Program-made: the position numbers and the translations under genes
In this document: in pieces, positions 1,548-41,395 of the stretch
Numbering within the stretch: position 1 is the first letter of the stretch
Layout: the number at the start of each line of letters is the position of its first letter
Notes under the pieces: generated by a model
Told to the model about the DNA's origin: nothing
The model's input: only the letters and a program-made list of their open reading frames with translations
Databases searched by the model: none
Source: Dictyostelium discoideum
Lineage: Eukaryota
NCBI GenBank assembly: GCA_000004695.1
Contig: CM000150.2
Span: 2,816,001-2,880,000 of the forward strand
DNA length: 64,000 nucleotides
Direction: 5' to 3'

Positions 1548-1634
1548 GACTCCTTAGCATAGTGGTTTATTGTAATTGTCTCCAAAACGTTAGAAGTTAG
1601 CAGTTGGTCCAGGGTTCAACTCCCTGAGGGGTCT
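1548..1634 (+). tRNA. tRNA-Trp (anticodon CCA) with a ~13-nt intron 3' of the anticodon
   Basis: The acceptor stem GACTCCT pairs with AGGGGTC at 1627..1633, with one G-U pair. The T-arm is CAGGG-TTCAACT-CCCTG. The anticodon arm is ATTGT-CTCCAAA-[intron aacgttagaagtt]-GCAGT with the anticodon CCA. The D-arm is less regular, so a tRNAscan check is needed. A TRE5 fragment upstream and an ex-B box downstream support a genuine tRNA gene. Confidence 0.55.
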
Positions 1635-9136: not shown

Positions 9137-9930
9137 CCTTAGAAAAAATTATGATTGGAATGAAAAACCAAAGTGATGTTGAAAAAAAAAAGAAAAAAAA
9201 TAAAAAAAAAATAAAAAAAATGAAAAAAAAAAAAAAATTGAAAAAAAAAATAAAAAAATAAATTTTAAAAATTAAATTTTAATACGGAGCGCGCCGAATT
9301 TTTTTTACTTTTTTTTTTATTTTTCATTTTTATGTTTGACAACTTCAATCCCTTATTAATTTTTTTTTTTACATTTTTAGTTTTTTTGATTTTATCATCT
9401 TTGGCAACTTTAACCTTTTTTATTTTTTTATTTTTTTTATTATTTTTTATTTTTTTTATTTTTTTTTATTTTAATTTAAAAAATCAAATTAGAGTTTGTT
9501 CCTAATAATAAAAATAATAATTAATAAGGTAATAATAACAAACCATTTATAATTTTGATTTAACCCAAATCTAACAACTATTTTTAAAAATCATAAAATA
9601 TTTATAGATGAACAGTGGCAGTTGACTCACAACAAGCATTTAAAAAGATATTTATTTTCACCCTTTTAGTGGAAATTACTTTTTTAAAAATTTTATTGTT
9701 TTCTTTGAAAATTCCCAAATTTAATTTATTTTATTTTTTATTTTATTTTTTTTTTTTTTAATTCTCAAAAAAATAATAAAAAAAAAATAGATTTAATTTT
9801 TTTTTTTTTTTTTTTTTGCCATAATATAAATCAAAAAAATAAATAAAAAAATAAATAAATAAATATAAATAAATAAATAAATCAAAAAAAAAATAAAGTA
9901 AATTAAATAAAAAAAAAAAAAAAAAAAAGA

Positions 9931-12040: not shown

Positions 12041-12080
<40 letters not shown>

Positions 12081-12089
12081 TAATATATT

Positions 12090-12162
<73 letters not shown>

Positions 12163-15100
12163 GACCAATTTTTAAAATTAATTCAACAGGTACAGATCAA
12201 TTAATTATTAGAGCATTTACAGTTTCAAAGAAAACATTAAAAAGAAAAACAAAAATTAGTGGATCATTAAAAGTTGATGTTAATAAAATTAAAAATGAAA
12301 ATGGTGAATTTGAATCAATTTCAACAACTACAATTGATTTAGCAAGTTTCTTTGGTGGTAGAAATGTTCATAGTTGTAAATTTCAATTACTTCTTTTTTC
12401 AATTTCATATCCTGGAAATTTAATTTCTCAAGTTTTTGAAAAAGGAGATGATGGTACACAATTTTTATTACAATATACACCAATCAATGTAAATTCTTTT
12501 GAAGTTGGTAATCAATTCATTATAAATGCAACCGATTCAATCTCTAGAGAAAATTTAAAGAATTTATCATTAAAAGTTTATAATGATGATGATGGTGATG
12601 AAAAAGATAAAAAATCATTCAAACAATACACGATAACAGATTCACAAATTCAATTATTTGAAAAATCTACAATCGGTGGTTCTCATATGTTTATTTCAAC
12701 ATTGGATGGTAAAAACAAATGTTTATATCAAGTTCCTATCAATGAAATCAATAAGAAACCTTATGAATTCACTACCATAATTTTTGCCCAACAAGGAATT
12801 TTTCGTCCTGGCGATACTGTTAATGTTAAAGGTACAATTAGAGTTGTAGTTGATGAAGGTGTAATCTTACCAGATTCAAAGTTTTTCTCAAAGTATATTG
12901 ATGTTTATCAAAATGATGATATGGTAAATATATCATACACTTTAAAGGATGCAAAGAAAAAAGAAGTTGCCAAAGGTATAACAAAATTAAATGAATTTGG
13001 TTGCTTTGATCTAAAGTTAGTATTACCATTGGATATTAATTTGGGTAACTGTTCAGTGGTTTATAAATATTGTAATGAAGAATTCTCATTCTCTGATATC
13101 AATGTTCAAGAGTTCAAATTGAAAACATTTTTATTGGAATGCTCAATGTCAACCGAATCAAATCGTGGTACCTTTGAATTGGAGACACCATTTGGTGTTG
13201 AATTATTTGCAAAATCATACACTGATGAAATTATACCAAATACAACTGTAGATTGGAAAATCACCGTAAGACCATTGACACCAATCCTCTCGAATTTGGA
13301 TAAAGCTTTCAATTACTTTAGACATGAAACTGATAATATGTATTTTGGTGAGAGTTTTGCTTATAAAAGTAAAAGATCACCAAATGGTAAACATAATTTA
13401 GATTTGGTTCTTCAAGAATGTTCACAACGTTGTGAAGTTAGAGTTCATGCAACTGTAGCCGATGCTTCAAATAATCAAGAGGAAATCTCAAAGAATTTTA
13501 TTGTAGAGAATACTAAATTCACAAACTTTGGTGTTTTAAGTTCCAGTTCAACGATAACTCATCTTATTAATGTCGGTCAAGATTTCCATGTTGATATGTC
13601 ATTGCGTTACTTTGACAATCAACAATCATTTGATGGTAAAATCGATGCAGAAATTCAAAAGATTCCATATGAAGAAGATTTATTACCAGAGAATGTTCAT
13701 AAGAGTACAATCATACCACATACTGATACTCCTTTAAGATTCTCTTATCAATTCAATGAAACTGGTTATTATAAAATAAAATTAAACTATAGTAATGGTG
13801 GTGAACAATTATCTCAATATCATACCATTTCATTGTTTGTATTTGGTAAACAATCTCAAGCAGAATTAGAATATAAAGAATGTACTGCACCTGTTAAACA
13901 AACAACTACAAACAACACCTCATTACTCTATGGAAAGGAAACATTTAAAGCTAAACCAAAACTTGATATCAATTGTTCATTAGATAAAGAGATTTATCAA
14001 TTGGGTGATACAATTAAAATGTGTATCTCTTCAAAATCATTGAATGCCAAGGGTTACATTTGTTGCTCCAAAGAGAATACAATCATTAATGTCATACCAA
14101 TTCAATTGATTGATGGTCAACATGATTGTAAATTTGAAATCAATGAAAAAGTTTATTATCAACCATTATTCTATGTTTATTTAGAAGGTAGTTTGTTGGT
14201 GGAAATAAATGGTGGCCAAAAGGTTAATCGTTTAACAAGTTCATTCGTAAAGGTACCAGTAAAGATTGATTACACTGACAAGCTATTGAATGTTCAAGTT
14301 GAAAAATGTAATAAATTCCAATCTCCATCAGAAGAATCAAATATTACTATCAGTGTAAAAGATAAAAATCAAAAACCACTCTCAAATGCTCATGTTTCAT
14401 TGATTATTGTTGATCAAGCAGTTTTAGATATAACAAAGCATTCAATTAAAACCCAATGGGATCCATTAAATACTTACTTTGGAGATGGTTCATTTTTTAT
14501 TGGTAGAAATAAAATGAACTCTCTATTGGACAAAACAATCTATAATGATCCAGTAGAAATTAAAACCATTGAATTGGATCTTGAAGATTTCCAAGGCGAT
14601 AATGAATTACAAATCATTAATATTAAATATATGGCAGGTAGAATCATTCAATTAAAAGTATCGGATGAAACAACCATTGGTGAACTTCAACAAATGATTA
14701 TGGACAGAGATGGTCTTCCACCATCATCACAACGTTTATTCTACTTGAATAAACAAATTGATTCAAACGCAACAATGAAACTTAAAGAATTTTCAATCGT
14801 TAATAAAGCAACTCTTAATTTGGTAATCCGTTTACATGGTGGTACAAATACACCACCTTCAGATGACAAACCACTAGCTCAAGATTTGAATAAACCAATT
14901 AGAGTACGTTCAAACTTTATGCCTTTGGCTTACTTTGGAAGTTTAAATACCAATCAAGATGGTAAAGTAACATTTACTTATAAACTTCCAGATAATCTTT
15001 CAACCTTTAGAGTTATGGCTTTGGTTCACTATGGCAAAGATCAATTTGGTAGTTGTGAACATACTTTTATATCATCGTTACCAATAATGGTTCGTCCAAG

Positions 15101-17171
15101 TCCACCACGTTTCTTAAATCATAATGATAAAGCAATATTCCCAATTATGATTTCATCAATCGTTGATTGTGATTTATTTTTTAGTGGTGCAATTCGTTCA
15201 AATAATTGTAACATTGAAACCAAAGGATTCAGTGGTGTACTTCCAGCAAAATCTAGAATCATATTCCCTGTCCATGTTAATGCTTTAGTTTCAAATTGTA
15301 TTGCAGACTTTCAATTTGTTGCAAAAACTCAATTATTAGATCATTCACAAGAGATTTGTGATGCAATCTCATTTAAATTCCCTGTTTTCTCTTCAAGTGT
15401 ATTGGAGACAACAACTATCAATCATAGTTTAGTAAATTTGAAATCAAAGAAAGAAATTTCATCTCACAACTTAAAACTTGATAATTGGAAAGATTTAGAT
15501 CAACAATTGGGTGGATTAACAATTACTCTATCAAAAACTAAACTTCAAAAGATTTCATGTTCAGTTAAAGATTTATTACATTATGAATACTCTTGCTCTG
15601 AACAAATTGCTTCAAAATTATTAGCCCTCTCCACCTTTATAAAGTATCCACATTTATTAGAAGAAAAAGATATCAAAGCTTTAGGTCTTGAGAATATTAA
15701 AACCAATAAGAAACCTTTGGAAGATATGGTTGAAATTTTAAAGAAACGTTATCAATCATCAGATCATTCATTCACTTATTTCGATGATAAAAAGAGTGGT
15801 TCATATGAATTTGTTTCAGTATTTGTTTACTTTGTATTGAATCAAATCTCTGATCTATCGGAAGAAGCCAAAAAATTGGCATCAAAGGCTGAAGCTTACT
15901 TTTCAGGATCTGCCAATGTAATGGTTTTTAATAGAGATTCTTATGAAAAGAATAAATTCCAATATCTTTTAGGTAAAGCATTTGCATCATTTGTCTATGG
16001 TACCATTAAACAAACCTCTGTACCTCATACAAGTTTTATTTCAAAGGTTTTACAAACTGCAAAATTCGATTTCTCAAATAGCCAATATCAAGAGATCTTT
16101 ATCTATCTCTCACAATTCTACAAGAGTCACCTCGATTTCAAAAATATTTCAAACTATGTTACAATTACTGGTTCCTTGGCTTATGTTACTTCTAGTCCAA
16201 TCTTTGGATTCTATGGGGATACTCGTCTTCAGTCAATTTTAATACTTTCACTTTTAGAAAGTGGAAAGACATCACATAAAGATCATCCACTCTTGGAACG
16301 TTTAATAAGTGGTTTAGCTCATTTTGTAAATAAAGAAGGTCGTTATGGTACTACTCAAGCCAATGCATTCAATATCTTTGCAATCTCTCAATATGAAAAG
16401 ATGAAATTATCAGGTGAAAAAGTTGATCCAACATTGGATGCAAGTATTATTTTAGGAAATCGCTATTTGGAAAAGAAAAAAGTAACAATTGGTGATTCAG
16501 AAAATTATACAATCACTGTACCTTTCTCTCAAATCCTAAAGAATCAAAAACCATTGATAATTCAAAGAAAAACAAAAGGTACCCTTTATTATAGCATAAA
16601 TCTCTCCTATGCTTCATTGAATCCAATCTCTAAAGCTATCTTTAATAGAGGTCTCAATATTAAAAGAACCTATTATCCAGTTTCAAATTCAAATGATGTT
16701 ATTTATCATTCTCCAATTGGTGTTGACCAACCTCAAACCATTGAAATCAAAGCAGGTTCAAGAGTAAAGGTAACACTTTCAATAAAGGTCGATCATGTTT
16801 CTAGCTTTATAGTTATTAAAGATAGATTACCAAGTGGTTTGGAACCATTACTTTCAAATTCCTATTATCACAATGGTTATTATTTCAATCATGTTAATAA
16901 TCGTGAAAATGGTGTTGAAATTTATTCAAATCTTTTATATCCAGGTGTTTATAATTATTCCTATCAAACTATTGCAATTACACGTGGTACTTTTATTTCA
17001 CCATCAGCAAAAGTAAGTTTAAAAAATTTTTTCTTTTTTTTTTTTTTTTTATTTCTTTTCATATTACTGATATACTTTTTTTTTTTTTTTTTTTTTTTAC
17101 TTTAGATTGAAGAAATGTATTGTCCTGCAACTTTTGGTCGTTCTTCTTCAGAAATTGTATTAATTAAATAA
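9931..17171 (+). CDS. Alpha-2-macroglobulin/thioester-containing-protein (A2M/TEP) family protein, ~2,337 aa, with an N-terminal and an internal ubiquitin-like domain; 3 exons
   Basis: Exon 1 is 9931..12029. Intron 12030..12163 runs GTATGT..AATAG and carries (TAA)n. Exon 2 is 12164..17012. Intron 17013..17105 runs GTAAGT..TTTAG. Exon 3 is 17106..17171 (IEEMYCPATFGRSSSEIVLIK*). The phases check (2099 + 4849 + 66 nt = 2338 codons), and the frame is open from 12164 with no internal start, so the join to exon 1 is needed. A2M-like motifs are 'LPDNLSTFRVMALV' (cf. PDSITTW), 'SLPIMVRPSPPRF' and 'YEYSCSEQIASKLLAL' (cf. GCGEQ). Ubiquitin-like stretches are 'DTTIDSLKIQ..IRFIFSGKQLENFSTLEENKIENDSTIIV' at the N-terminus and 'IQLKVSDETTIGELQQMIMDRDGLPPSSQRLFYLNKQIDSNATMKLKEFSIVNKATLNLVIRLHGG' internally. 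Confidence 0.7.
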
Positions 17172-27560: not shown

Positions 27561-28540
27561 ACAAAATTAAAACAACCAAAAATAAAATAAAAAAAAAAAA
27601 TAAATAAAAAAAAAAAAAACAAAAAAAATTTATCACTATGAAAATAAGAAGAGAAAAATTTCTTAAATTTGAGATAAAAATAAAAAAAAGAATAAAAACT
27701 AAAAATAAATTTTTGATCAAAAAAAAAAAATAAAAAAATAAAAAATAAAACAATTTTGTATTTTTTTCTCAATTTTTTTTTTTTTTTTTAATAATTAAAA
27801 ATTTGCAATAAAAATAAAAATAGAAAAAAATAAAGAAAAAAATAGAAAAAATTGGTAGTTATTGTTTTCTAAAAATAACACATGAGGACCCTCGAATCAT
27901 GATTGATTTTAATGATTATAATCAATAAAAAGTTTTTGGGAAAAAAAAATAAAAAAAAATAAAAATAATAAAAAAAAAAAAAAAAAAAAAAACTGACCAC
28001 CCCACCACACACAAACCAAAAATATTCTTTTTTTTTTTTTTTATTATTAAAGTGATGGTTAAATATATCCATTCATACACACATAAAAATTTTTTATTAA
28101 AATAATATTTTAATGAACCCACTTTGATGGTTATGTTAAAAAAAAAAAAAATAAAAAAAAAAAAAAATTCTGTTGAGATTGATTCAGATTTATTCACATT
28201 TTCTTTTTTTTTATTATTATTATTATTATTTAAATAAAAAAAAAAAATAAAAAAATAAAAAAAAAAAAACAACATTTGAAAAGGTTTCTTTTTAATTATT
28301 ATTTTTTTAATTTTTTTTTTTCTATTCATTATTTTAATATTTTTAATATTATTAATTTACCACAAATTTTATATTAAATAAATATATATAAATTAAATAA
28401 ATATATATAAATAAATAAATATTTAGTTTGTTTAGTTTTTTTTTTTTTTAATAATCAATTATTTTTATTATTTTAGTTTAATTTTTATTATAATTATTAT
28501 TATTTTTTAAATATATATATATTTTTTTTTTTAAATAAAA

Positions 28541-29608
28541 ATGGCAGATAAGAAAATTATTATCGATTTTGGATCAGGTTGGACAAAATGTGGTTTTGAA
28601 GGTGAAGTAACACCAAGTGTAGAATGTTTAACAATTGTTGGACATCCGAATAAACAAGGTGATACAAAATTGTTTTATGGTAAAGAAGCAGTTGCAAGAT
28701 TTAGTACATCAAAATTAGTGTATCCAATAAAGAATGGTATAGTTTGTAATTGGGAAGATATGGAAAAGTTTATAGAGAATACATTTTATTATAAATTAAG
28801 AGTTGAACCACAATATCATTCGGTATTACTAACAGAAACAACAATGAATACTAAAGAGAATAGAAATAAAATGGCAGAGATTATGTTTGAAACTTATGAT
28901 ATACCATCAATTAAAATTGAAAATCAACAAAAGTTATCATTTGATCATTTATCAACAGGTACTAAAAACGGTACAATAGTTGATATGGGTGATGACTCAA
29001 TTAATATAGTGCCATTTGTTGATGGTCAACCAGTGACTGATGCCGTTGTTACACTTGATTTCGGTGGTCGTAATTTAACAGGTTATTTGGCCGCTTTGTT
29101 ATTCCAAAATGGTTATAGTTTCTCAACAGTTGCTGATCACCAAATTGTACGTCAAATTAAAGAGAAACATTCTTTCATTGAATTGGATTATGAAAAACCT
29201 TCAAATACTAAAAAACAATCATTTTCTTATCCTGGTTCATCTGATATTCAAATTGATGCTCGTTATTTATACGGTTGTCCTGAACCACTTTTTAGACCTT
29301 CACTAGTTGGTTTTGATTCTTCTGATAGTCTTTGTAATTCAACTTATTCTTCAATTATGAAATGTGATCAGTCAGTTCAACAATCATTATTTTCAAATAT
29401 AATTTTAACAGGTGGTTCTTCAATGTTTACTGGAATTAAAGAACGTCTTGAATTGGAAATTTCAAAAATTAATACTACCAGCAATAAAATTAATATAATA
29501 TGTTCAAAAGATCGTAAAAATTCAAATTGGTTAGGTGCTTCAAAATCAATTACTTCAACTGATAATTGGGTTTCAAAAGAAAAATTTACTGAAAAGGGTA
29601 CTTTTTAA
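28541..29608 (+). CDS. Divergent actin / actin-related protein (355 aa)
   Basis: A single ORF that aligns along its whole length with actin: 'IIIDFGSGWTKCGF' vs 'LVIDNGSGMCKAGF', 'NWEDMEKFIENTFYYKLRVEPQYHSVLLTETTMNTKENRNKMAEIMFETYDIPS', 'VTLDFGGRNLTGYL', 'YSSIMKCD' and 'LTGGSSMFTGIKERL'. Confidence 0.75.
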   Translation: MADKKIIIDFGSGWTKCGFEGEVTPSVECLTIVGHPNKQGDTKLFYGKEAVARFSTSKLVYPIKNGIVCNWEDMEKFIENTFYYKLRVEPQYHSVLLTETTMNTKENRNKMAEIMFETYDIPSIKIENQQKLSFDHLSTGTKNGTIVDMGDDSINIVPFVDGQPVTDAVVTLDFGGRNLTGYLAALLFQNGYSFSTVADHQIVRQIKEKHSFIELDYEKPSNTKKQSFSYPGSSDIQIDARYLYGCPEPLFRPSLVGFDSSDSLCNSTYSSIMKCDQSVQQSLFSNIILTGGSSMFTGIKERLELEISKINTTSNKINIICSKDRKNSNWLGASKSITSTDNWVSKEKFTEKGTF

Positions 29609-29623
29609 TAAATAATTTTTTTA

Positions 29624-29660
<37 letters not shown>

Positions 29661-29860
29661 TTTAAGAAAAAAAAAAACTTGGAAAAAAAAAAAAAAATAT
29701 AGATATTTTTTTTAAAAATTAATTAAAATAAAAAAATAGTATTATTGTGTAAATAAATAGTTTTTTTTTTTTTTTTATTATTTTTTTTTATAAAATATAT
29801 GTTTTTAAATAGATAAATAATATTAATTTTGAAAATATAATTTCTTTTTTTTTTTTTTTT

Positions 29861-30125
29861 TTATCTTTTTCTTTCAAATGTTTTTGTTGGGCAAATTGAC
29901 CAACCAATCCATCTGCTATTTGGATTTTTAACATAGGTAATTTCATTTTCAATTAATTCACATTCTATTGTTGATGATGTTGTTGATTTGATATAAATAT
30001 CATTTTTAGTTGAATTACCATTATTTAATGATTTTAAACATTCTATTTTATTAGTTTAGTTAGAAAAGTCTTTTTTTTTTATTTTTATATTTTTTTTATT
30101 TCAAACACTTACTAAAAAGAGACAT
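29861..30125 (-). CDS. Possible small 2-exon gene (64 aa: MSLFKCLKSLNNGNSTKNDIYIKSTTSSTIECELIENEITYVKNPNSRWIGWSICPTKTFERKR)
   Basis: A 13-nt exon 1 at 30125..30113 (ATGTCTCTTTTTA, donor GTAAGT) joins exon 2 at 30042..29861 through an AATAG acceptor. The phase fits and the codons are GC-enriched (agcagatggattggttggtcaatttgccc). It is spliced, so it is absent from the ORF track. Weak call. Confidence 0.3.
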
Positions 30126-30275
30126 TGTATTTGTGTGGTGTTATTGTTTTTTTTTTATTTTTTTATTTTTTTTATTTTTTTATTTTTTTTTATAATTATA
30201 TTGTAAATAAAATGATTTTTTTTTTAAATCGATTTTGGATTTATACAAATGATAATTTCCAAAATTATATTTAAA

Positions 30276-30308
<33 letters not shown>

Positions 30309-30962
30309 TATTAATTTTTTTTTTTTTTAATAGTACTAAAAATAAAATAATAAATTCAAAAAACATAAAAATTATAAGTAGTTTACAAAAAAATGAGGGG
30401 TTGTGGGTGTGGTTGTGGGGTGTTTATTGTTACATTGATACAATAACTATCCAATCAATCTTTACCACAAAAAACAAAAATCACTTTCGATAATGTTGGA
30501 ATTTATGGTATATAATTATAATGAAATAATTATTTAATTTTGGTATTTAAACTTGAAAATAATAATAATAATAATAATAACAATAATAAAAAAAATGATA
30601 ATAAAAATAATATTTTGCTTTGTTATTACTCAACCCCAAGTTTATAGATCTTTTTTAAGATTAAAAAATAATTTTTTTAAAAAGTCATTAATTTTTTTAT
30701 TTTTTTCATTAACACAAAATAATAGTTATAATCTTGTGTGAGTTGTTTTTATTATTATTATTTTTTAAATATAATTTAATTATTATTATAATTTTTTGTT
30801 TTTTTTATTATTGAAAATGATATACGATAGTTAGTAATGGTGGTTAGTAGTATTAAAATAATGATGATGATTTTACTCTATATATAAATATATTTTTTTT
30901 TGATTTTATTAATATATTCAAACCAATTGAAATAAAAGGTAATTGAATATTAAATGTAATTT

Positions 30963-30995
<33 letters not shown>

Positions 30996-32279
30996 TTAAT
31001 AATTTTCATTTTACAACACCAATTTTAAAATAAAAAAAAACTTTTAATTTCACAGTCACAGTTTATTGTAATTTTTTTTGATATATGCAGTAGTAGTTAG
31101 AATGTAATCATTTATTATTCAAAAAGACACTCCTTACTTGGAAAAAAAGAACAGTAAAATTGTTTTTATTTGTTATTAATTTTTAATGGCATTAAAAAAA
31201 AAATTCATTCAATAAAAACTAATAAATAAATGAGGAATTTACTATAACTATCACTTATTATTTTAAATATTTATAAATAACTTTTTTTTAAAAAAAGTTA
31301 AATAAATATTTATTTTTCATAGTTTTTTTATTATTTTTATAATTTATTAAAATTATATCCCAATTTAAAAAGAATTTGAAAAATTAAAAAAATAATTTAA
31401 TAAAAAATTAATCAAATTCCTTTATTATTTTTAAATTTATTAATTTAATTAAAAAAAAATAATAAAACCAGCAAACATCCCGAATTGGAAGAGGTCATTA
31501 AAAAAAAAAAAAAAAAAAAAAAAAAATTATTTTTAATTGAATATAAATATACATATATGGTTTTATAGTAATTTAAGTATTAGAACACTTTAAAATGCAA
31601 CCTTTTAAAACATTATCCTCTACATTAATATATCACTTTGTTCCAAAGGCATCCCGGAACCAAACATCGGCAATGGAATAGTCAATGTTTCCAGCTTTCT
31701 TCAACGGAGTTTCCCTTGCAAATTTGTAATTTTGATTATTTATTAAATATCTATTGAATTTTTATTATTTTAGTGACTCAAGATGAATTAATTATTTTAA
31801 TTTTTTAATTTTTAATTATTATCCTTCATTGGTTTATATGAATTGTTTTTTTTTTTGTAAAATAAAAGTTATATTATGAAATAATATTTTATAATAGTTT
31901 TCACTATCTTTTTTTTTCACATCGAGAATCCCTAAAAGAAATAAATTTTTTGTAAAAATATTAAAATGATACCCCTTTTACCATTTTCTTATTTTGAAAA
32001 TTTCCTGATTTGGAAATTTTCTTTATGGCTATAAGATTTCCTAAAAAATAGTTAAAATTTCTTTTTTTATTTCAAATAATTCAAAAAAATCGAAAAATGA
32101 TCAAGTATAAAAAGTATATTTTTTTTAAAAAAAAAAAAAAAATAAAATAATCATTCTGACAAATGTAAAAAAAAAAAATAACAAATAGAAAATAAATCTA
32201 ACTCTAACAATTAAAAAAGTTTAGATAAAAGTTGATAGATAGTTTGAAAAAATAAAAAAAAAAGGAAAAGCAATAAATA

Positions 32280-32310
<31 letters not shown>

Positions 32311-32630
32311 AACAATTTAAATCTTTCTTTATTATTTTTGTATAGTAATTTTTTCAAAAAAAAAATGGTTTACATTTAGATAATAATATATGAATCAATA
32401 CCAATCAAATTATAGAGAAAGGAAAGATTTATCTATGCACTATATCATAGAAAGGTTGATGATCATATAAATATTATCCAAAAGTAAGGAAATAAATCAA
32501 TACTAATTAAATGTCAGGGAAAGGAAAGATTTATCTATGGCATTTTGAAAAGAAATTTATCAATAAAAAATTAGAAAAACCAAAAAACTAAAAATAAAAA
32601 AATATAAATAAAATTTTTTTTATTTTTTTG

Positions 32631-32672
32631 AATTGGATAACGCAATTATTATTTGCTTCTCCTTGAGAAAAT
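32631..32672 (-). mobile_element. Partial TRE5-A C-module relic (oldest of a pile-up)
   Basis: 'tttgaattggataacgcaattattatttgcttctccttgag' matches the C-module end seen at 33001..33060 and 41722..41765 but is truncated. Confidence 0.5.
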
Positions 32673-32725
32673 ATAAATAATATAAAAATGTTTAATAATA
32701 TTATTGTTAAATAATAAAAAAAAAT

Positions 32726-32756
<31 letters not shown>

Positions 32757-32894
32757 TTTTGACAATATGATTATAAATGATTTTTTTTTTGTTACAGTAA
32801 ACAAAATAAAGTTTTAAAATAAAACATATAAAAACACATGAAAATTAATTATTAAATTTATTTTTCTTAAAGGAATAAAATAATTATAACTAAT

Positions 32895-32970
32895 TTTTTT
32901 GAATTGGATAACGCAATTATTAGTTGCTTCTCCTTGAGATGCTAGATCTCATTTTATTTGTAGTTTTTTA
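32895..32970 (-). mobile_element. Solo TRE5-A C-module (extremely 5'-truncated insertion)
   Basis: 'ttgaattggataacgcaattattagttgcttctccttgagatgctagatctcattttatttgtagttttttacaggg', preceded by oligo(T) (oligo(A) on the element strand). Confidence 0.55.
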
Positions 32971-32991
32971 CAGGGATAATTAAATCGAATA

Positions 32992-33111
32992 AATTTTTTT
33001 TTTGAATTGGATAACGCAATTATTATTTGCTTCTCCTTGAGATGCTAGATCTCATTTTATTTTATTTATTTATTTTTTTTTTACAGGGTCTCTAAAAGAG
33101 GGGTTGGTTTA

Positions 33112-33149
<38 letters not shown>

Positions 33150-33441
33150 TTTCGAATTTTGAATTGTATTATTACTTTTGATTAAAACATCTTTTTTGTC
33201 CAAACTTTTTTCTAAATCTTTTTTTATTTTATCGTCTGGTTCGTGATTGATGTTTATGACGTATTTGAATTGTTTTTTTTTTAATTGAGTTTTATCCACA
33301 ATTTCGCTTATTTTTTGTAGGCATTTGTGTTGCTTAATATTTGTGGTGTTGTTTGAGATTTTCATTTTATTTTCTTTCTATTTTTTTTATTTTTCTTTAA
33401 AAAGTTAAAAATCTGGAAATTTTCTGATTAACTTGGGTTCC

Positions 33442-33482
<41 letters not shown>

Positions 33483-33999
33483 TTATTTATAGAAAGTACT
33501 GAGTGAATTATTGTATTTTTTGAGATGTTTAGGAAGTTCTATTGCGTGAGGAGGTGAGTTCCATTGTCTGCTAAATTGTAATAGCTTTAGCGAGATTAGT
33601 GAGTCTAATTTATTTTGTTCTTCTGGCCGTTGCTTTGATTTGATTCTTAATGTTTTGTTTATAACCGCTTGTGTCAGCTCTTTGTGTTTTAATTAGTTCA
33701 CGTATTACTTGTTGTCTGTGAATTATTATTTCTTTTTCATCGTGAATGAGTTTGTTTCTTTTGTGCCAAATTTTTTCGAATATAATAGCTATTAAATTGG
33801 CTACTAGTGCAATTTGTAGATGGTTTAAAATCTTCACATTCCAGGTGTGAGTGGTGTGTCCACACTTAGTTAGGGTGTAGTTGAAGATTTCTTGTGTGTT
33901 TTTGATGTGGGCTTTGCAGTTGAAGAATATATGTTCTGAAGTCTCATCTTCCCCACACTGTTGGCATGGCATGTTGAATATTTTTGGTAGTGCTTTCAA
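32992..33999 (-). mobile_element. 5'-truncated TRE5-A non-LTR retrotransposon (ORF2 C-terminus, B-module with ORF1 start stub, C-module, oligo(A)), inserted ~30-45 bp upstream of tRNA-Gln
   Basis: Minus-strand order is ORF2 C-terminal ORF (33999..33610), B-module with ORF1 stub (33365..33081, MKISNNTTNIKQHKCLQKISEIV..), 'agaccctgtaaaaaaaa', then C-module 'aaatgagatctagcatctcaaggagaagcaaataataattgcgttatccaattcaaa' and oligo(A). It is bounded by a 16-17-bp direct duplication 'AATTAAATCGAATAAAT' at 32975..32991 and 34000..34016. Confidence 0.7.
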
Positions 34000-34044
34000 T
34001 TAAATCGAATAAATATAGGTTTTTTTCTAAAAAAAATATCAAAG

Positions 34045-34117
34045 GTTTTATAGTGTAATTGGTTAGCACCCAGGACTTTGAATCCTGTAATCTGAGTTCG
34101 AGTCTCAGTAGAACCAC
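34045..34117 (+). tRNA. tRNA-Gln (anticodon UUG)
   Basis: Cloverleaf read by eye. The acceptor GGTTTTA pairs with TAGAACC. The D-stem is GTGT/GCAC. The anticodon arm is CAGGA-CTTTGAA-TCCTG with TTG. The T-arm is CTGAG-TTCGAGT-CTCAG. The discriminator is A. Confidence 0.85.
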
Positions 34118-34139
34118 TTTTTATATAAACAAAAAATAG

Positions 34140-34165
34140 GTCGTTGGTTCAATTCCTGATTAAGA
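34140..34165 (+). promoter_or_regulatory. ex-B box downstream of tRNA-Gln
   Basis: 'ggtcgttGGTTCAATTCCtgattaag' lies about 22 bp 3' of the tRNA. Confidence 0.5.
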
Positions 34166-34379
34166 AACTAAATGGAACTTATTAATAAAAGCACTCAATT
34201 GTTTAATATTTAAAAGTTTTTAATAGTCATCGATTCACACTTTAAAGCTTTCATATTAATTGTGTTTTTATTATTTATTATGATCAATATTGGCATTAAA
34301 TTAAAAATTTAAGTGGTATGTAATAAAATCAAAAATTAATTTTTTTTTTTAAAATGTTTCGTTTAAAACTTGTTATATA

Positions 34380-35110
34380 TTTTCTATTTTTAAATTAGTT
34401 GAATTTTTAGGAGATGATGAAGAAGCGAATTTTACAAATGCATTATATGTATGTTACAAAAATATTGAATCATGTTGTTCATGTGATATTATTTCAAAGA
34501 TTATTATTTTTAGTTGTAAATCATCACATGAATTAGTTGATATTTTAAGTTTAGATAATAATACAATATTGGATTTGCATGTGGTGTCAATCAAGATGAA
34601 ATAGTTAAAGATCTACAATCTCTATTACCCTATCAAGACATTCTTCCATTAAACAAGAGCCCAAGTTAAGATGATTTCAAATCATTAACGAGTAGAATTA
34701 ATGGTGGTATAAATTTTTCATCCTAAACCAAATGTCCAGTGAATATTGAAGTTTATCCACATTCAACTGAAACTAGATCAATTAAAGAAGATATTTTACT
34801 TGATGTTGTCATTAAACCAATAAAAGTTGGTGCTGATGAAGTAGTAATCCCACCAGGTACTAAAATTAAATTTCTTTCAAATTCCTATTGTTCGAGTTGA
34901 ACAATTATTTTAGCAAATGAACTAATAGTGGGTCAAAAATATAATGAAACGGTTTCATTAAAGCGTAAGAGATTTGATGAGTGTAATCAATTAGTATCAA
35001 TTCCTGGCTTTCCATCTAAAATTAACTTTACCATTGAGTTTAAAAATGAAAATATAAAGTGAATATTCATGAAGGTTCAATCAATTTAAATATCGCTTAC
35101 TTTTTTGGGT
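34380..35110 (+). pseudogene. Truncated, stop-riddled paralogue of the 5' half of the vWA-GTPase gene at 36550..38865
   Basis: 34380..35110 aligns base-for-base with 36940..37700 ('..gatgaagaagcaaattt..tattgaatcatgttg..attatttttagtt..gaattagttgatattttaagtttagataataatacaatat..ggatttgcatgtggtg..' and '..ccagtgaatattgaagtttatccacat.caactgaaac.agatcaat.aaagaaga..'). It carries in-frame stops ('atgaaatag', 'ccaagttaag') and deletions. Confidence 0.7.
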
Positions 35111-35620
35111 GAATTCAAATAAAATATGTGTAACAACTGGTGGTCGGTGTCATCAGTGTTAGTTTTTCCTAATGATTTCTTTATTGTGTTGGTTATTGTT
35201 GCAGAAGTTATTGGTGTTGTAATGTTGGGTGATGATGGTGGTGTTGAATGGTTATTTAATGATTGTTGATTTATTAATTGAATGTGTTGTTAAAGTAGTT
35301 GATTTTGTTTATCTATTACTTGTTGCTGTTCTCTTATTTGACGTTGCTGTTCATTGAATGTTGATACCTGTGATTGATGTTGTTGTTCCTCACTATCCTG
35401 TTGTTGAGGTTCATTATTATCAATATCTTCATTGTTATTATTGTTGTTATTATTATTAGTTGACATTCTCTAAAAATAATTATTTGATAAAATTCAATTA
35501 TTTATTATTACTAATTTAATTTATTATTTTATTATTATTGAATTTATTTGTTATTATTATTATTTAAATAAATGATTAATTATTTAAGAAATAAATGTAC
35601 ACATATATCTAGTTGACGAC

Positions 35621-35755
35621 CGTAGCCCTATCGCGTTTTTATTATTGTATATTTATTACTGAGGTTGAAATAGAAACCTAGTTTCTTTTTATAGTCCTCA
35701 GATTTGAGCGAACTCAAATCTGTTAACTACTCCAACCTCAGCCGATAGGGTTAGA
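35621..35755. repeat. Nested imperfect palindrome / hairpin element (~135 bp), GC-enriched
   Basis: The outer arms are 'CCCTATCG' (35628..35635) and 'CGATAGGG' (35743..35750). The second arms are 'tactgaggttgaaatag' and 'ctactccaacctcag', matching at 13 of 15 positions. The core is a perfect 10-bp stem-loop 'cagatttgag-cgaa-ctcaaatctg', plus 'gaaacctagtttc'. The class is unknown: MITE or structured ncRNA. Confidence 0.5.
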
Positions 35756-36517
35756 TCCAATTTAAACTACAATATTATATTATTTTAATTTTATTCTAAT
35801 TAATTATTATTTTTCTTTTTAATTAAATTATTTTTAAATTTATATTATTATTTTATATGATGATTTTGTGTGTGACATTTTTAATACCTTTATCATCAAT
35901 AATTATCATCAAAATAAAACTAGAAAAAATACCCTTAAAGATATCCAATATCTTAAATTGTTAACAAGGGCTGTTGAATTATGTAAATAAAAAAAAGGTT
36001 CCAAAAAAAAAAAAAATAAATAAATAAATAAATAATATAATTTGATAATTTGGTAAAATAAAAAAAATAAAATAATAATATCGGTCTATAAAAATTATTT
36101 TAAATTATTTATTTGTTTTTATTTTTTACATATCTTATTTTTTTTTTTTTTTTTTACCAAATTAAGTATATCTTTTTTTTTAAACTTAAAATATTAATTA
36201 ATTTGGTAACCACAAGAGGTAATCCTAAATTTTCAAAATTTTTTTTTTTTTTTTTATTTTTTTTTTTTTATTTTTCATTTTTTAATTTTTTAAAAATGAC
36301 CTCTTAAAATATTAAATTCAAAACTTAATAAAATTATTTTTTTTGCCTTAAATCAACATGACCTAAAATTTTAATTAATTCAATAGGAGTCAACAAAAAG
36401 GAATGTTTTTTTTTTTTCAAATAGGAATTAATAAAAAGGAATTATTTTTTTTTTTTTTTTTTATCATTCAATCAAAAATAATAATAAATAATTATTAAAT
36501 AAAAATATCATAAATAA

Positions 36518-36549
<32 letters not shown>

Positions 36550-36552
<3 letters not shown>

Positions 36553-38865
36553 TATAAAGAAATTCCAAAAAATAATAATCAAAGACAAGCTCTTAAAACT
36601 GAACTTAAAACATGTACAAATACAGATAGTAGTGTAGTTTATTATTCAATTCTAATTGAAACATCGTCAAGAATGTCTGCCTATAATGTAATAATTAAAA
36701 CATTTATTACTCAACTTCAAAAAATCAATAGAGATTGTCAACTTCAAATCATTACATTTGATGAAACTGTAAATACAGTATTTGAATTCGAAACTGAACC
36801 AATTCTTCTTAAAGATAGTTTAAAAGAAAGTAAGTAATTTTTTTTTTTTTTTTCTTTAATCTTCAAACATATTCTTATATTAATTTATTAATTTTTTATT
36901 TTTTATTTTTTTATTTTTTTTTTTTTTAAATTAGTTAAATTTTCAAAAGATAATGAAGAAGCAAATTTTGGACAAGCATTACAAGTATGTTATGCTAATA
37001 TTGAATCATGTTGGTCAAGTGATAATATTTCAAAAATTATTATTTTTAGTTCAGGTAAATCAACAGATGAATCAGGAGATGAATTAGTTGATATTTTAAG
37101 TTTAGATAATAATACAATATTTGGATTTGCATGTGGTGCCAATTCCGATGAAGTTGTTAAAGATTTACAATATCTATTACCTGGTCACAAGATTGCTCCA
37201 TTGGGTAAAAATCCAAGTAAAGAAATTAAAACATTAATGAATAGTGGTGGTGAAAGTAACAACAGTTGTGGTGGTAGTGGTAGTGGCGATGATGATGATG
37301 GGGCAAATAATTCATCAACTAATTGTCCAGTGAATATTGAAGTTTATCCACATACAACTGAAACAAGATCAATCAAAGAAGATCTTTTTCTTGATGTTAT
37401 CATTAAACCAGATGGTAATACAACAACGATTCCAGCAGGTACAAAAATTAAATTTCTTTCAAGTAAATATTACTCGGCCTATACCATTCAATTAAAAGAT
37501 GATTTAATATTTGGTGAACCATATGAAGAAACCATTAGATTAGAGTTTAAAAAAGGTCAACTTGAAAAAACACAATTTGAACACTTTCCATCAAAAATTA
37601 ACTTTACCATTGAACTTTCAAATGATAGAGACAATGTCCATCAGGGCTATGTATTTTTGAATATCTCTTACTTTTTAGGTGAATTAAAATCAAAGTATAG
37701 TATTAATATTGGTGTTGAAGGTAATATTGGTAATGGTAAGAGTACTTTATTGAATGGCTTCATTAATCTTTTCAATCCAACAGATGAATTGGTTGAATAT
37801 TTCATTGCAAATCGTTCCAATGATGATCATGTAACCACAAGCTTCAACAATACATCATTAAAGGAAATTCTATCATCAAAACAAGATATTCATCCAGTTC
37901 AAGAATCATTCCATGATATTGATATCTCTTTGTCTGATAATTGGGGTTTCATCGATACCGATGTATCATTAAGATATAAAGCCGAAGGTAGAATTCATCA
38001 TGGTGTCTCAAAGAATAATTGTATAGTTCAACAACCATTGGATCGTTATCGTGTCGATTGTTTTATTTTCGTTGTTTCCATTAGAAGTTTCGGTGATAAA
38101 GATTCTATGGCAAAAATTGAAAAGAAAATTAGAGAAGTTATTGATATGGGTATCACTCCTTTATTAGCTATTACTTTTGTTGATGCTCTTTCTAAAAATC
38201 AATTTCAAGAACTCATTAGAACCAGAGGTGAATTATCAGTTCAAGAATCTAATACCTTTATCATCAATAACTATACTGAAAAGGAAACTCATAGAGATAT
38301 CTCTAAAGATATTCAATATCTTAGATTATTAACAAAAGCTGTTCAATTATGTAAAATTTTAAAAGAAAAGCAAGCAATGAATAAATTAAAAGCTTTATCA
38401 ATTGATGAAAATAATAATCCAACACCTGTTAAAAATCAACAACCATCATCATTTTTTGGTGAATGTTCTTCAACCTTCACTTCTCCAAATAAATCGTTTC
38501 AAAGTCCAATGACTGGATCTCCAATGCAAACTCGTCAATCTGAAACTCAACAACAACAACAACAACAACAGCAACAAATATCTTTACCAATTAATGTTAC
38601 CGTTGATGTTGTACCAGATGCTCAAGGAACTATTTTAACTTCATTCGAGATAGAAGCAAATCTTAATGAAACCATCTCTGAATTAAAGAATAGATTAATC
38701 AATGAAATTGACTCCAATATTAATTCAAATGATTGGAGCCTTACAAAAGAAAATGGTACAATTCTATTCGAGTCTGCTAAATTACTATTATTATCCTCTT
38801 CTTTTAAACCTTCTGAACAACCTGATTCCATTAAATTAGTATTAAAGAAGAAATTAAGATTATAA
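36550..38865 (+). CDS. vWA-like domain plus septin/AIG1-like P-loop GTPase protein with a C-terminal beta-grasp (UBL-like) segment; 2 exons, ~736 aa
   Basis: Exon 1 is 36550..36829 (MYKEIPKNNNQRQALK..LKDSLKE). Intron 36830..36934 runs GTAAGT..AATTAG. Exon 2 is 36935..38865. The N-terminus has a vWA-like beta-alpha pattern with a degenerate MIDAS ('VVYYSILIETSSRM..QIITFDETVNTVF..KIIIFSSGKSTDE'). The Walker A motif is 'INIGVEGNIGNGKSTLLNGF', which is septin/GIMAP-like. Further motifs are 'WGFIDTDV', 'CFIFVVS' and 'AITFVDAL'. The C-terminus reads 'INVTVDVVPDAQGTILTSFEIEANLNETISELKNRL..SIKLVLKKK'. Confidence 0.6.
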
Positions 38866-39251: not shown

Positions 39252-39324
39252 TGGTTCTACTGAGACTCGAACTCAGATTACAGGATTCAAAGTCCTGGGT
39301 GCTAACCAATTACACTATAAAACC
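39252..39324 (-). tRNA. tRNA-Gln (anticodon UUG), inverted copy
   Basis: An exact reverse complement of the tRNA at 34045..34117. Confidence 0.85.
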
Positions 39325-39689: not shown

Positions 39690-41395
39690 GGAACCAAGTT
39701 AATTAGAAAATTTCCAGATTTTTAACTTTTTAAAGAAAAATAAAAAAGATAGAAAGAAAATAAAATGAAAATCACAAACAACACCACAAATATTAAGCAA
39801 CACAAATGCCTACAAAAAATAAGCGAAATTGTGGATAAAACTCAATTAAAAAAAAAACAATTCAAATACGTCATAAACATCAATCACGAACCAGACGATA
39901 AAATAAAAAAAGATTTAGAAAAAAGTTTGGACAAAAAAGATGTTTTAATCAAAAGTAATAATACATTCAAAATTCTCACAGACAGTATTAGTACAGTAAT
40001 CTATTTTGTAAATATGTTTGATGCAGAATTAAAAGGACAATTTATAACCACTATAAGACCAAAAAATATGTATACAGATTTTGATTGGTATAAATCACTC
40101 ACAGAAATAGAATGGGTAATAGAAAATGAAGGATGTAAACTAATTAAATCAGAAATTAAAGGCGAAACTCTAATTATCAAAACAGTGAAAAGAGTCGTAG
40201 AAGAATTTGACACTATCATTGAACTAGACAATCTAACATTAATTGGACACTCCAACAAAGGATGGAGAGATCAAACCTCATTACCAGAAAATCAAGAAGA
40301 AAACAAAAATAAAAAACAATCAGATGAACAACAACCACAATCTACATCAGAACAAATACCAAAACAAGGAAAAAGAACAATCATTATCCCACCAATCACA
40401 TCCTCATCTAATGATAAAACATTTATGGCCCTAGATGATACAGCTCAAAAGGTAATAGAAGCATCACTAGAAAACGTAGATGAACTAACAAGAATAGAGA
40501 ATGAGATCAATACACAATCGATAAACAATCAAGAAATTAAAACAAAATCAGAAAAAAATATAGCAACACCATCTCCATACAATACACCAATAAAACAACA
40601 CGGCGAAACAAAGGGACTAACAACGGAAGAAAAACTTAGAGAGGCAAATGATATCTTCGACTTCACCAGCCCAAACACTGATGCAATAAGAAAAATAGAA
40701 TTCCCACTTTCAATCCCTTCAAATCAATGGTTCTTCTCCTCTCCAATAAAACATATCATGAGTTTCAGCCCAACCTATGGTACACCATCGAAAATTATCG
40801 ATTCACCAAGTAAATTGTTAAACACACCAAAAAAGAAACAACAAGACAAAACAAACAAGACCAACAAAACACCAGTCAAACCAAAATTGGGTGAATATGG
40901 ACAAAAAAGCATAAAAACAAAAATGGATGAAGATATAGACAACTTCAACAAGGAAATTCTAAAACAAATCAATAAATCAAAAAACCCCACAAACACACAA
41001 GACCAACAACACAATGAACAAAGTAAAGATCAGTTAGAAGACAAAATAAACCAGAAACTTCAAAAGGTAGATAAAAATCTACCCCAAATAAAACTATAAA
41101 GAAAAACACAATAAGAATAGGTGTTTGGAACGTCCAAGGATCCAACACCATCCAATCTGCCAGCATAATAAACACCGTTTTAGACAACAACAAGCTGGAC
41201 GCAGCACTTCTAACTGAAACAAATATAAAAACAAATAAAATTTACTCAATAAATCAACAATATAAAAACAAAATAACACACCACGCACCAATTGATAAAA
41301 CAGGACAAGGGGTGTCACAAATCATCATCAACACCCGCAATAGAACTTCCTAAACATCTCAAAAAATACAATAATTCACTCAGTACTTTCTATAA

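Follow-up and report, generated by a model that had tools for sequence, protein, structure and literature searches.

A GC-rich nested palindrome of Dictyostelium discoideum as a predicted folded cis-element of a Ty3/gypsy-type long terminal repeat

How does a GC-rich, highly self-complementary block of about 140 nt come to lie as an island in the extremely AT-rich DNA of Dictyostelium discoideum? The question is raised by a 64-kb stretch of this genome (hereafter the window; coordinates are window positions unless a locus identifier is given), of which positions 28000-37634 are 99.7% identical to assembly GCA_054883475.1 (D. discoideum). A first inspection of the letters alone (the sequence-only reading) had singled out the block at 35621-35755 and offered two explanations, a miniature inverted-repeat transposable element (MITE) or a small structured RNA. 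We find that the block is part of a mobile unit with defined termini and target-site duplications (TSDs), and that this unit is linked to a region encoding gag, reverse transcriptase (RT), RNase H and integrase. With a probability that we put at about one half, the block is a conserved cis-element, with a predicted fold, located in the long (~1.1-kb) terminal module, of the long terminal repeat (LTR) type, of a Ty3/gypsy retrotransposon of the D. discoideum species complex.

Anatomy of the block

The nested inverted repeats span 35618-35757 when imperfect pairing is included. The block occurs only once in the window and is overlapped by no open reading frame (ORF) of at least 30 amino acids. 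All the outer and inner inverted arms listed by the sequence-only reading were recovered, both in the sequence and in the pair table. The outer arms, CCCTATCG (35626-35633) and CGATAGGG (35743-35750), form a perfect 8-bp pair that is imperfectly extended; the perfect 10-bp core stem with its 4-nt loop is indeed present at 35699-35722 (strands 35699-35708 and 35713-35722, loop 35709-35712), and what had been described as a quasi-palindrome is a small hairpin at 35672-35686, here called P4. On the minus strand these pieces assemble into a three-way junction; an 8-bp long-range helix closes it and is accompanied by a one-sided A/U loop of 24 nt (Table 1). The same fold is predicted for all the D. 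discoideum copies of the block described below and for a long-form copy from 'Dictyostelium cf. discoideum'. In the long forms the stacked helices P2 and P3 approach 28 bp, the longest uninterrupted stems being of 10-14 bp.

Table 1. Positions of the block and its helices, of the other features of the window locus, and of the full-length units
Feature	Locus	Positions	Strand	Description
Structured block	window	35618-35757	-	minus-strand reading: P0, P1, P2 and a three-way junction bearing P3 and P4; from minimum free energy fold and pair table
P1 5' strand	window	35743-35750	-	CCCUAUCG; inside the 16-nt TAACCCTATCGGCTGA, invariant over four diverged units
P1 3' strand	window	35626-35633	-	CGAUAGGG; partner is 35743-35750
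One-sided internal loop between P1 and P2	window	35634-35657	-	A/U-rich, 24 nt; length and sequence differ among copies
P2 5' strand	window	35731-35742	-	GCUGAGGUUGGA
P2 3' strand	window	35658-35669	-	UUUCAACCUCAGU region; partner is 35731-35742
P3 hairpin	window	35691-35730	-	6-bp stem, 2x2 internal loop, perfect 10-bp stem, UUCG loop
P4 small hairpin	window	35672-35686	-	AGAAAC-UAG-GUUUCU
5'-truncated unit copy	window	35129 to ~35885	-	~757 bp; from BLAST and alignment to the full units L001:4164-5326, L002:4088-5195 and L003:4234-5190
LTR-borne start of the gag ORF	window	35129-35466	-	MSTNNN...DDTDHQLL; one in-frame stop at 35290-35292; runs through the 3' terminus of the unit
Pseudogene, left part	window	34370-35127	+	decayed VWA/GTPase-like duplicate; 70% identity to 36906-37694
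Pseudogene, right part	window	35882-35987	+	same pseudogene; 81% identity to 38250-38355
Full unit	L001	4164-5326		1163 bp; D. discoideum; TSD AGTTT
Full unit	L002	4088-5195		1108 bp; D. discoideum; TSD ATTTA
Full unit	L003	4234-5190		957 bp; D. discoideum; TSD AATTG
Solo unit	L016	2166-3341		D. cf. discoideum; TSD AAATA

Folded as RNA, as the sequence-only reading suggested, the block does far better than shuffled sequences on both strands. For a 146-nt segment the predicted energy is -46.1 kcal/mol on the plus strand (z -5.9) and -52.9 kcal/mol on the minus strand (z -7.9), as judged against dinucleotide shuffles (n = 200), none of which folded as well as the block on either strand (0/200).

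Comparison with known RNAs brought no relative. At the gathering threshold Rfam 15, whose models include tRNA, snRNA, snoRNA, SRP RNA and ribozymes, gave no match on the block, and at E<=10, for the region and for the isolated block, the best sub-threshold scores were of 8-15 bits vs cut-offs of 45-150; ARAGORN called no tRNA at the block. In Dictyostelium, class I non-coding RNAs (ncRNAs) are 42-65 nt long and are marked by an 11-nt motif, CCTTACAGCAA, and by a Dictyostelium upstream sequence element (DUSE), [AT]CCCA[CT]AA, about 60 nt upstream. The block, by comparison, is ~140 nt long, and no DUSE, class I motif or C box was found near it (the first two were sought in 35400-36000 and in the L001 unit). 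Three matches to the DUSE pattern exist elsewhere in the window, with no RNA-like body downstream. A hammerhead ribozyme, considered by eye, was rejected: CUGAGGA and GAAAC are present with no helix II between them, and CUGAGGA is mutated in L001. The microRNA (miRNA) supplements of two published Dictyostelium studies (PMC6161686, PMC11014262) contain no match to the block, and 20-mers from its hairpin gave 0 matches in a text search of the literature. A metagenome scan with an exact 25-mer and a structural pattern revealed no relative, its single match, L004, being an unrelated GC-rich contig, and neither did a scan of viral contigs with the structural pattern. One half of the structured-RNA proposal is thereby left without support, namely the stand-alone small ncRNA gene, for which there is no Rfam, DUSE, class I, C-box or tRNA signal; the other half survives in modified form, a structured nucleic acid that is an element of a retrotransposon LTR being the most plausible reading.

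A ~1.1-kb mobile unit and its retrotransposon

The block lies within a pseudogene. This pseudogene aligns to its intact paralogue only at 34370-35127 and 35882-35987, and the segment in between is therefore foreign: where the gene would have about 556 bp between the two parts, the pseudogene has ~757 bp of unrelated sequence. Read on the minus strand, the foreign segment is made of an AT-rich stretch, the block, a 150-nt AT-rich spacer, and an ATG at 35466 that opens an ORF rich in asparagine and glutamine codons. It was already pointed out by the sequence-only reading that the block belongs neither to the pseudogene nor to the sequences nearby that resemble a tRNA-upstream retrotransposon (TRE5), and this is borne out.

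A protein search with the window ORF matched four D. discoideum 'hypothetical proteins', and full copies of a larger unit were found around three of them (L001, L002 and L003; Table 1). The units are 0.96-1.18 kb long, have the ends 5'-TGTAACAAG...TTGTTACA-3' and are bordered by perfect target duplications of 5 bp; for the L001 copy, paralogous B-box genes show the site without the insertion (ATTTCAGTTATTT). Those of L001, L002, L003 and L016 start with TGTAACAAGATCTC and end with TTGTTACA, the ends in D. discoideum being given as CAGTTGTTACA. The TG...CA termini TGTAACAA...TTGTTACA, which contain an 8-bp inverted terminus, are thus found in D. discoideum as well as in D. cf. discoideum copies, and the first 15 nt and last 8 nt of the unit are invariant.

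Within the unit the block occupies positions ~548-690, which makes it an internal part of a larger mobile element rather than a mobile element itself. It does resemble a MITE, being short, present in several copies and provided with terminal inverted arms (CCCTATCG / CGATAGGG, perfect over 8 bp), but it differs in having no TSD of its own and in being seen only at one internal position of the LTR. No direct repeat is found beside it between the flanks ...TTAAATTGGATCTAA and CTACGGTCGTCAAC..., which are themselves conserved parts of the larger unit. The internal position of the block in the ~1.1-kb unit is identical in all the copies (10/10), and the termini and the 5-bp TSDs belong to the unit; none of the 10 copies recovered, a sample smaller than the whole genome, stands in an independent context. 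On these grounds the MITE proposal was rejected for the block as such.

In a sliding scan of one full-length unit copy the block is the sole strong structural outlier (z -4.6 to -5.1), the remainder of the unit staying near z 0, except for a value of about -3 at the 5' terminus. The first 38 nt of the unit, its best conserved part, contain a sub-terminal palindrome, TAACAAGAT...ATCTTGTTA (L001:4164-4195; unit positions 1-38; the same in the D. cf. discoideum units), with a fold z of about -3 on both strands, and a second hairpin, AAATGTTCT-AAAC-AGAACATTT, is found ~50 nt further into the unit.

As to the ORF borne by the unit, its window and L001 versions differ by 12.5 synonymous and 10.5 non-synonymous differences, i.e. 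a ratio of the non-synonymous to the synonymous proportion (pN/pS) of 0.20, a sign of coding constraint. The in-frame stop of the window copy apart, it has no stop codon within the unit, and consequently the predicted proteins share their N-terminus and diverge exactly after ...DDTDHQLL. HMMER and profile searches retrieved ORFs about 50% identical in D. cf. discoideum (P0007, P0009, P0010, P0011). In four proteins (P0006, which is DDB_G0294302, P0012, P0013 and P0014) the ORF continues as ...DHQLLH-GSFSSGCKV... for ~270 amino acids further, into gag in P0006, P0012 and P0014, and in L018 (D. discoideum) and L019 (D. cf. discoideum) TGGTAGCTTCTC comes directly after the unit end TTGTTACA, with the same frame open. 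Pfam recognized no family in the unit ORF and the gag tail.

The sequence that follows the LTR displays a TGG signature (TGGTAGC, primer-binding-like) and then a pyrimidine run (CTTCTCTTCT). TGGTAGC would match the usual end of the eukaryotic initiator tRNA; none of the four tRNAs of the window has a 3' end complementary to TGGTAGC.... Self-priming of the Tf1 type was rejected, because no complement of the post-LTR sequence is found in the unit.

The most complete picture of the whole element is provided by L019, near-complete at 9266-15251 (D. cf. discoideum, GCA_054859235.1). Its unit (9266-10338, plus strand) is followed downstream on the same strand by genes that match zf-CCHC (faint), RVT_1, RT_RNaseH, Integrase_H2C2 and rve. 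TG...CA termini and TSDs of 5 bp, together with a TGG site and an interior of gag, RT, RNase H and integrase, in that order, identify a Ty3/gypsy-type LTR retrotransposon; we conclude that the unit is the LTR-type end of such an element, its status as an LTR not being fully proven, and solo LTRs are the best interpretation of the TSD-flanked ~1.1-kb units.

The two ends of L019 are unequal. The 5' copy is of 1073 bp; the 3' copy consists of the last ~340 bp of the unit only (97% identical, ending at 15251), without the first ~726 bp, i.e. the block-bearing part, and the integrase ORF stops 3 nt inside it. The element is flanked by T-runs at both ends, and the candidate TSD, TTTTT, is weak in such T-runs. 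That the sole two-ended element has a complete copy at its 5' end and just these ~340 bp at the other leaves the LTR status of the unit short of full proof, as do two negative results, no purine run before the 3' repeat where a polypurine tract should be and no tRNA complementary to TGGTAGC.... The missing tract is what one expects if the 3' LTR is 5'-deleted, and we favour a deletion posterior to insertion as the origin of the short repeat. Another possibility is that the real LTR is limited to the ~340-bp direct repeat of L019. This is less likely, because the TGT with which the short repeat starts is private to L019, the other copies reading TTCGATATG or AAAGAATG at that place, and because four ~1.1-kb units have perfect outer TSDs.

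The ORFs of solo LTRs read into flanking DNA, or are spliced to neighbouring exons by gene predictors, as seen at L001:5001-5432, L002:5001-6131 and L003:5001-5452 and, in AX4, for DDB_G0271474. The corresponding entries (ACTFIT_010762, ACTFIW_011651, ACTFIT_002117 and DDB_G0271474) are annotation artefacts, not genes. Copies of the unit also occur in DNA dense in transposable elements, near DIRS-like tyrosine-recombinase and RT genes (L014:1-1847, L018:7157-9360 and 11832-12680, L020:1132-6172), and one predicted protein, P0005, is the end of a tyrosine recombinase fused to the LTR ORF; such arrangements probably result from insertions nested within clusters of repeats.

Conservation of the fold and alternative explanations

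Ten copies of the block were recovered. Five of D. discoideum come from the window and its L005 orthologue, L001, L002 and L003, and five of D. cf. discoideum from L014, L015, L016, L017a/L020 and L019 (short); D. cf. discoideum also has the long-form copy L017b. Between the two lineages, whole units share ~65% identity (~35% diverged), and through this divergence the fold persists while the sequence changes, its base being conserved and its tips turning over. The longest runs that are invariant over four diverged units are two 5'-terminal stretches (15 and 18 nt) and the 16-nt TAACCCTATCGGCTGA of the block; further ones are AATAAAAAC, CGATAGGGC (3' side of the block) and the terminal TTGTTACA. 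The base of the block, that is P0/P1 and the first 5 bp of P2, is thus conserved like the ends recognized by integrase. P1 pairing is kept in 9/10 copies and in both lineages, the exception being L003 with a single C-to-A change. In L002, a diverged D. discoideum copy, the block is 93-94% identical to the other copies and the rest of the unit 68-86%; when the three close D. discoideum copies are compared, the block does not exceed its upstream flank in conservation.

Higher up in the structure, changes accumulate. The base of P2, CUGAG/CUCAG, is kept in the short forms and in the D. discoideum copies, and in L017b (L017:5911-6054) one U of CUCAG is lost, which leaves a bulged A. Distal P2 is GUAU/AUAC in the short forms vs GUUGGA/UUCAAC in the long form. 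The short forms of D. cf. discoideum (~85-100 nt; L014, L015, L016, L017:2816-2920 and L019:9830-9925) have no P3 at all. In L017b both P3 and P4 have changed in sequence and kept their shape: P3 is GUAGUUGCAGAUCU-AGAGAG-AGAUCUGCAACUAU, with 14 perfect bp, and the copy folds at -53.7 kcal/mol (z -8.4). A hairpin at the P4 site is retained in the other copies with altered sequence and register. The short forms fold at z -3.3 to -5.2, so that values over all forms range from -3.3 to -8.4 vs shuffles. In the short form, CUCAG is present twice (P4 loop and 3' strand of P2) and GGCUGAG has therefore two alternative partners; L016 folds in the alternative way.

Pair counts were taken from an alignment guided by a covariance model, which leans toward structure. 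In this alignment 94.4% of the pair cells hold standard pairs, vs 34-41% when the partners are slid by 1-3 columns, and pairs changed on both sides number 4 vs 1.4 expected, a count of 4 being reached by 7 of 500 shuffles. A unique occurrence without compensatory support for the stems had been named by the sequence-only reading as grounds for abandoning its proposal; the block is multi-copy, always within the retrotransposon LTR, and its compensatory support is weak. Several observations have to be set against a conserved folded element. Covariation is thin and amounts to four single-sequence events on a structure-fitted alignment, and the four D. discoideum copies show 0 compensatory and 4 pair-breaking changes. 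The basal helix hardly varies (the L003 change breaks a pair); it is thus uninformative as to pairing and would fit a sequence-specific DNA site equally well. The perfect 10-bp stem of P3 with its 4-nt loop is missing in 5/10 copies. Finally, the short forms have no bias for the sense strand, L016 folding at -24.1 kcal/mol in the sense and -29.3 kcal/mol in the antisense orientation.

One explanation that makes use of some of these points is that the block acts at the DNA level, as a promoter or enhancer in the U3 part of the LTR: the invariant GC-rich half-sites CCCTATCG / CGATAGGG and their flanks would bind a transcription factor for gag, and the hairpins would be incidental. The location is suitable, since the gag ATG (itself within the LTR) follows 150-290 bp downstream of the block in extremely AT-rich DNA, and the intervening sequence includes a T-run (35476-35492), a feature that characterizes core promoters in Dictyostelium; what is conserved in the basal segments is their sequence, with no covariation, and the lack of sense-strand bias in the short forms agrees with a DNA site. 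However, a factor site does not predict the replacement of the apical parts of L017b by a different and again perfectly self-complementary sequence, nor the re-formation of P2 after P3 loss in the short forms. Moreover, the half-site spacing varies from ~70 to ~110 nt with pairing potential always retained, and the five G.U pairs of the long forms are all on one strand. We regard this explanation as unlikely. A neutral relic, i.e. a functionless palindrome born from DNA-level events (template switching, small fold-back insertion) and carried passively, would account for the clean presence or absence of P3 (~43 nt) that separates long from short forms, for stems as perfect as those of young palindromes, and for substitutions among the D. 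discoideum copies that mostly break pairs. It is rather improbable, given that, of the three longest runs invariant in ~65%-identical units, one is the base of the block and the other two belong to the integrase-recognized 5' terminus, and that the block of L002 changed ~3 times more slowly than its flanks; besides, mutation pressure in an AT-rich genome should presumably erode a GC-rich island fastest.

The remaining alternatives would make the block a source of RNA in its own right. It could be an independent small RNA gene, carried as cargo and transcribed from a polymerase III or DUSE-type promoter: by eye, GGCTGAGGTTGG is A-box-like and GAGTTCG resembles the start of a B box, the two being ~30 nt apart, and the sense strand has no run of at least four T until 35492. 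A58 and C61 are near-invariant B-box positions in tRNAs, and both are unmatched here; the B-box-like part lies within P3, which is missing in the short forms, and, with no tRNA call, no Rfam match even at E<=10 on the isolated block, and no DUSE pattern, class I motif or C box, such a gene seems highly improbable. Slightly less so, but still very unlikely, is a hairpin precursor of miRNA-like RNAs or small interfering RNAs processed by a Dicer-like activity of Dictyostelium. A precedent exists in thug-S, a Dictyostelium repeat that likewise bears a hairpin and from which miRNAs encoded many times in the genome are derived (PMC4894637; PMC6161686), and the stacked helices P2-P3 of the long forms come close to 28 bp. 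Yet a miRNA precursor is an unbranched hairpin with a duplex of ~21 nt, whereas the fold of the block, in contrast with thug-S too, is branched and its stems are short, of 10-14 bp when uninterrupted; half of the copies are devoid of P3, and the miRNA supplements of PMC6161686 and PMC11014262 contain no fragment of the block. We also discarded an identity of the unit with thug-S, as none of the miRNA sequences published for that repeat occurs in it.

The folded cis-element is thus the explanation we retain, and we infer that its active form is RNA. The gag-sense strand of the long forms contains a UUCG loop and five G.U pairs, whose counterparts on the opposite strand would be A.C mismatches, and it folds better than the antisense strand (-52.9 vs -46.1 kcal/mol for the window copy, -53.7 vs -49.0 kcal/mol for L017b). 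The genomic RNA of an LTR element contains every part of the LTR, with U5 located 5' and U3 located 3', and single-stranded cDNA is made from it as well, so that a fold on either strand would have an occasion to act while the element replicates. The block would fold in the element RNA (5' leader or 3' U3) or in the single-stranded cDNA, where the closing helix P0/P1 would bring together the three-way junction, and the invariant basal helix with its flanks could serve as a recognition platform for a factor encoded by the element or the host. The apical hairpins would be tolerated, exchangeable and dispensable decorations. Packaging or dimerization, control of gag translation, or a step of reverse transcription are candidate roles. 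A conserved (G/C)(T/A)ATAAAAT (TATAAAAT), ~90 nt upstream of the block in both lineages, would place the block in the 5' leader if it were a TATA box, a supposition based on this motif.

Known elements and the window locus

Structured cis-elements in LTRs or leaders are well known, such as the TAR, DIS and psi hairpins of retroviruses and the structure of the Ty1 5' untranslated region, and gag of Ty1 also starts inside the LTR. The block has in common with them that it is a stable, element-specific LTR fold, on the gag-sense strand and upstream of gag, with a basal part conserved between subfamilies and variable tips; in addition, the reading frame of the unit opens within the LTR and continues beyond its end through the primer-binding-like site. 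In contrast with these elements, the block is a three-way junction with a long-range 8-bp closing helix; it has no sequence or Rfam relationship to them, and its role is a predicted one.

Among the retrotransposons of the same host, Skipper-1, Skipper-2 (= DGLT-P) and DGLT-A share with our family the gag-RT-RNase H-integrase order, the TG...CA ends and the 5-bp TSDs, and Skipper shares the pyrimidine-rich CTTCTCTTCT just after the LTR (PMC5006619). Their published LTRs measure 390, 208 and 265 bp, respectively (PMC5006619, Table 1), unlike the TSD-flanked unit of 0.96-1.18 kb reported here. The primer-binding site of DGLT-A is TGGCGACATCGTCTTTC, 2 bp after the LTR (PMC5006619), whereas the sequence found here after the LTR is TGGTAGCTTCTC. 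DGLT-A and Skipper-2 insert within tens of bp of tRNA genes (PMC5006619, Table 1); no tRNA gene was found in nine loci of the family with flanks of 3-10 kb, and the window copy is ~1 kb from a tRNA-Gln gene. Skipper-1 and Skipper-2 have a chromodomain in a C-terminal extension of the integrase (PMC5006619), and Pfam detected none at E<=0.05 in the 517-amino-acid integrase ORF of L019, where a diverged chromodomain of the group II type could be missed or could have been lost with a 3' deletion. The family, compared here with published descriptions, may be undescribed or may be Skipper-2/DGLT-P with an LTR longer than reported.

One may go further and suppose that, in an undescribed long-LTR gypsy family or in a Skipper-2/DGLT-P whose LTR was misjudged, with gag starting in the LTR, the helix and three-way junction are an essential replication signal. 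The block could then be the docking site for non-canonical priming or for packaging, and Dictyostelium LTR elements of this group are already suspected of unusual priming (PMC5006619). In a more radical version the asymmetry of L019 (a 1.07-kb 5' module vs a 0.34-kb 3' repeat) would be its native architecture, the block-bearing 726 bp forming a 5' extension that stays outside the direct repeats and yet is integrated with the element. We consider this reading as a whole improbable.

A non-autonomous element of the Ginger2/Tdd group could also be envisaged, since TDD-4 and TDD-5 combine, in Dictyostelium as well, a 5-bp TSD with TGTNR termini (PMC2836005). But members of this group are characterized by terminal inverted repeats of about 50-300 bp (260-297 bp in Ginger2/Tdd) and by an integrase-like transposase without RT (PMC2836005). 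The inverted terminus found here is of 8 bp and the unit is linked to RT and RNase H, so this candidate was rejected; being joined to an internal region that contains RT, the element is a retrotransposon.

As for the copy in the window, it is certainly an inactive, dead remnant, because it is truncated and solo, has a stop in its ORF and lies inside a pseudogene. It retains the 3' terminus ...CAGTTGTTACA (TGTAACAA on the plus strand, 35129-35136) and has lost ~430 bp at the 5' end, the junction falling within 35882-35889; no gag/pol sequence of the family is present in the window. A solo LTR inserted into the duplicated VWA/GTPase-like gene, and a later deletion took the first ~430 bp of the LTR plus ~556 bp of the pseudogene. 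The locus of the other strain (L005) is 99.7% identical and has the same insertion, and is therefore uninformative as to polymorphism. The intact VWA plus GTPase-like gene is at 36550-38865 (plus strand), with a 736-amino-acid product in the annotation of the other strain, and the tandem decayed duplicate is at 34370-35987 (plus strand).

Other features surround this locus. Two tRNA-Gln(UUG) genes are in opposite orientation, at 34044-34117 (plus strand) and 39252-39324 (minus strand), and upstream of each is a copy of an ORF that starts with MKI(S/T)NNTTNIKQHKCLQKISEIV..., at 33081-33365 (minus strand) and 39765-41099 (plus strand); one copy is truncated to 94 amino acids and the other is of 444. 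This pair fits the candidate TRE5 mentioned by the sequence-only reading. Further away, a tRNA-Trp(CCA) call at 1548-1634 (plus strand) is 87 nt long and scores 44.8 bits with Rfam, below the other tRNAs of the window; it probably holds an intron. A C-rich run, CCCCACAACCACACCCACAACCCC, at ~30397-30420 (minus strand) in AT-rich intergenic DNA contains a DUSE-like pattern with no RNA-like body after it, and may be a promoter element.

What the analysis brings, then, is an explanation for an unusual GC-rich island amid very AT-rich DNA, which it assigns to a retrotransposon LTR. For annotation, it means that the reading frames of solo LTRs, extended into flanking DNA, account for several 'hypothetical proteins'. 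For the classification of Dictyostelium elements, it adds an LTR-type unit of ~1.1 kb that matches none of the LTR lengths published for Skipper-1, Skipper-2 and DGLT-A. And it brings to light a folded module with a base that equals the integrase-recognized termini in its degree of conservation. Several Dictyostelium elements of this group have no canonical primer-binding site, and should the module be a packaging, priming or translation signal, it would provide a handle on the replication of these elements.

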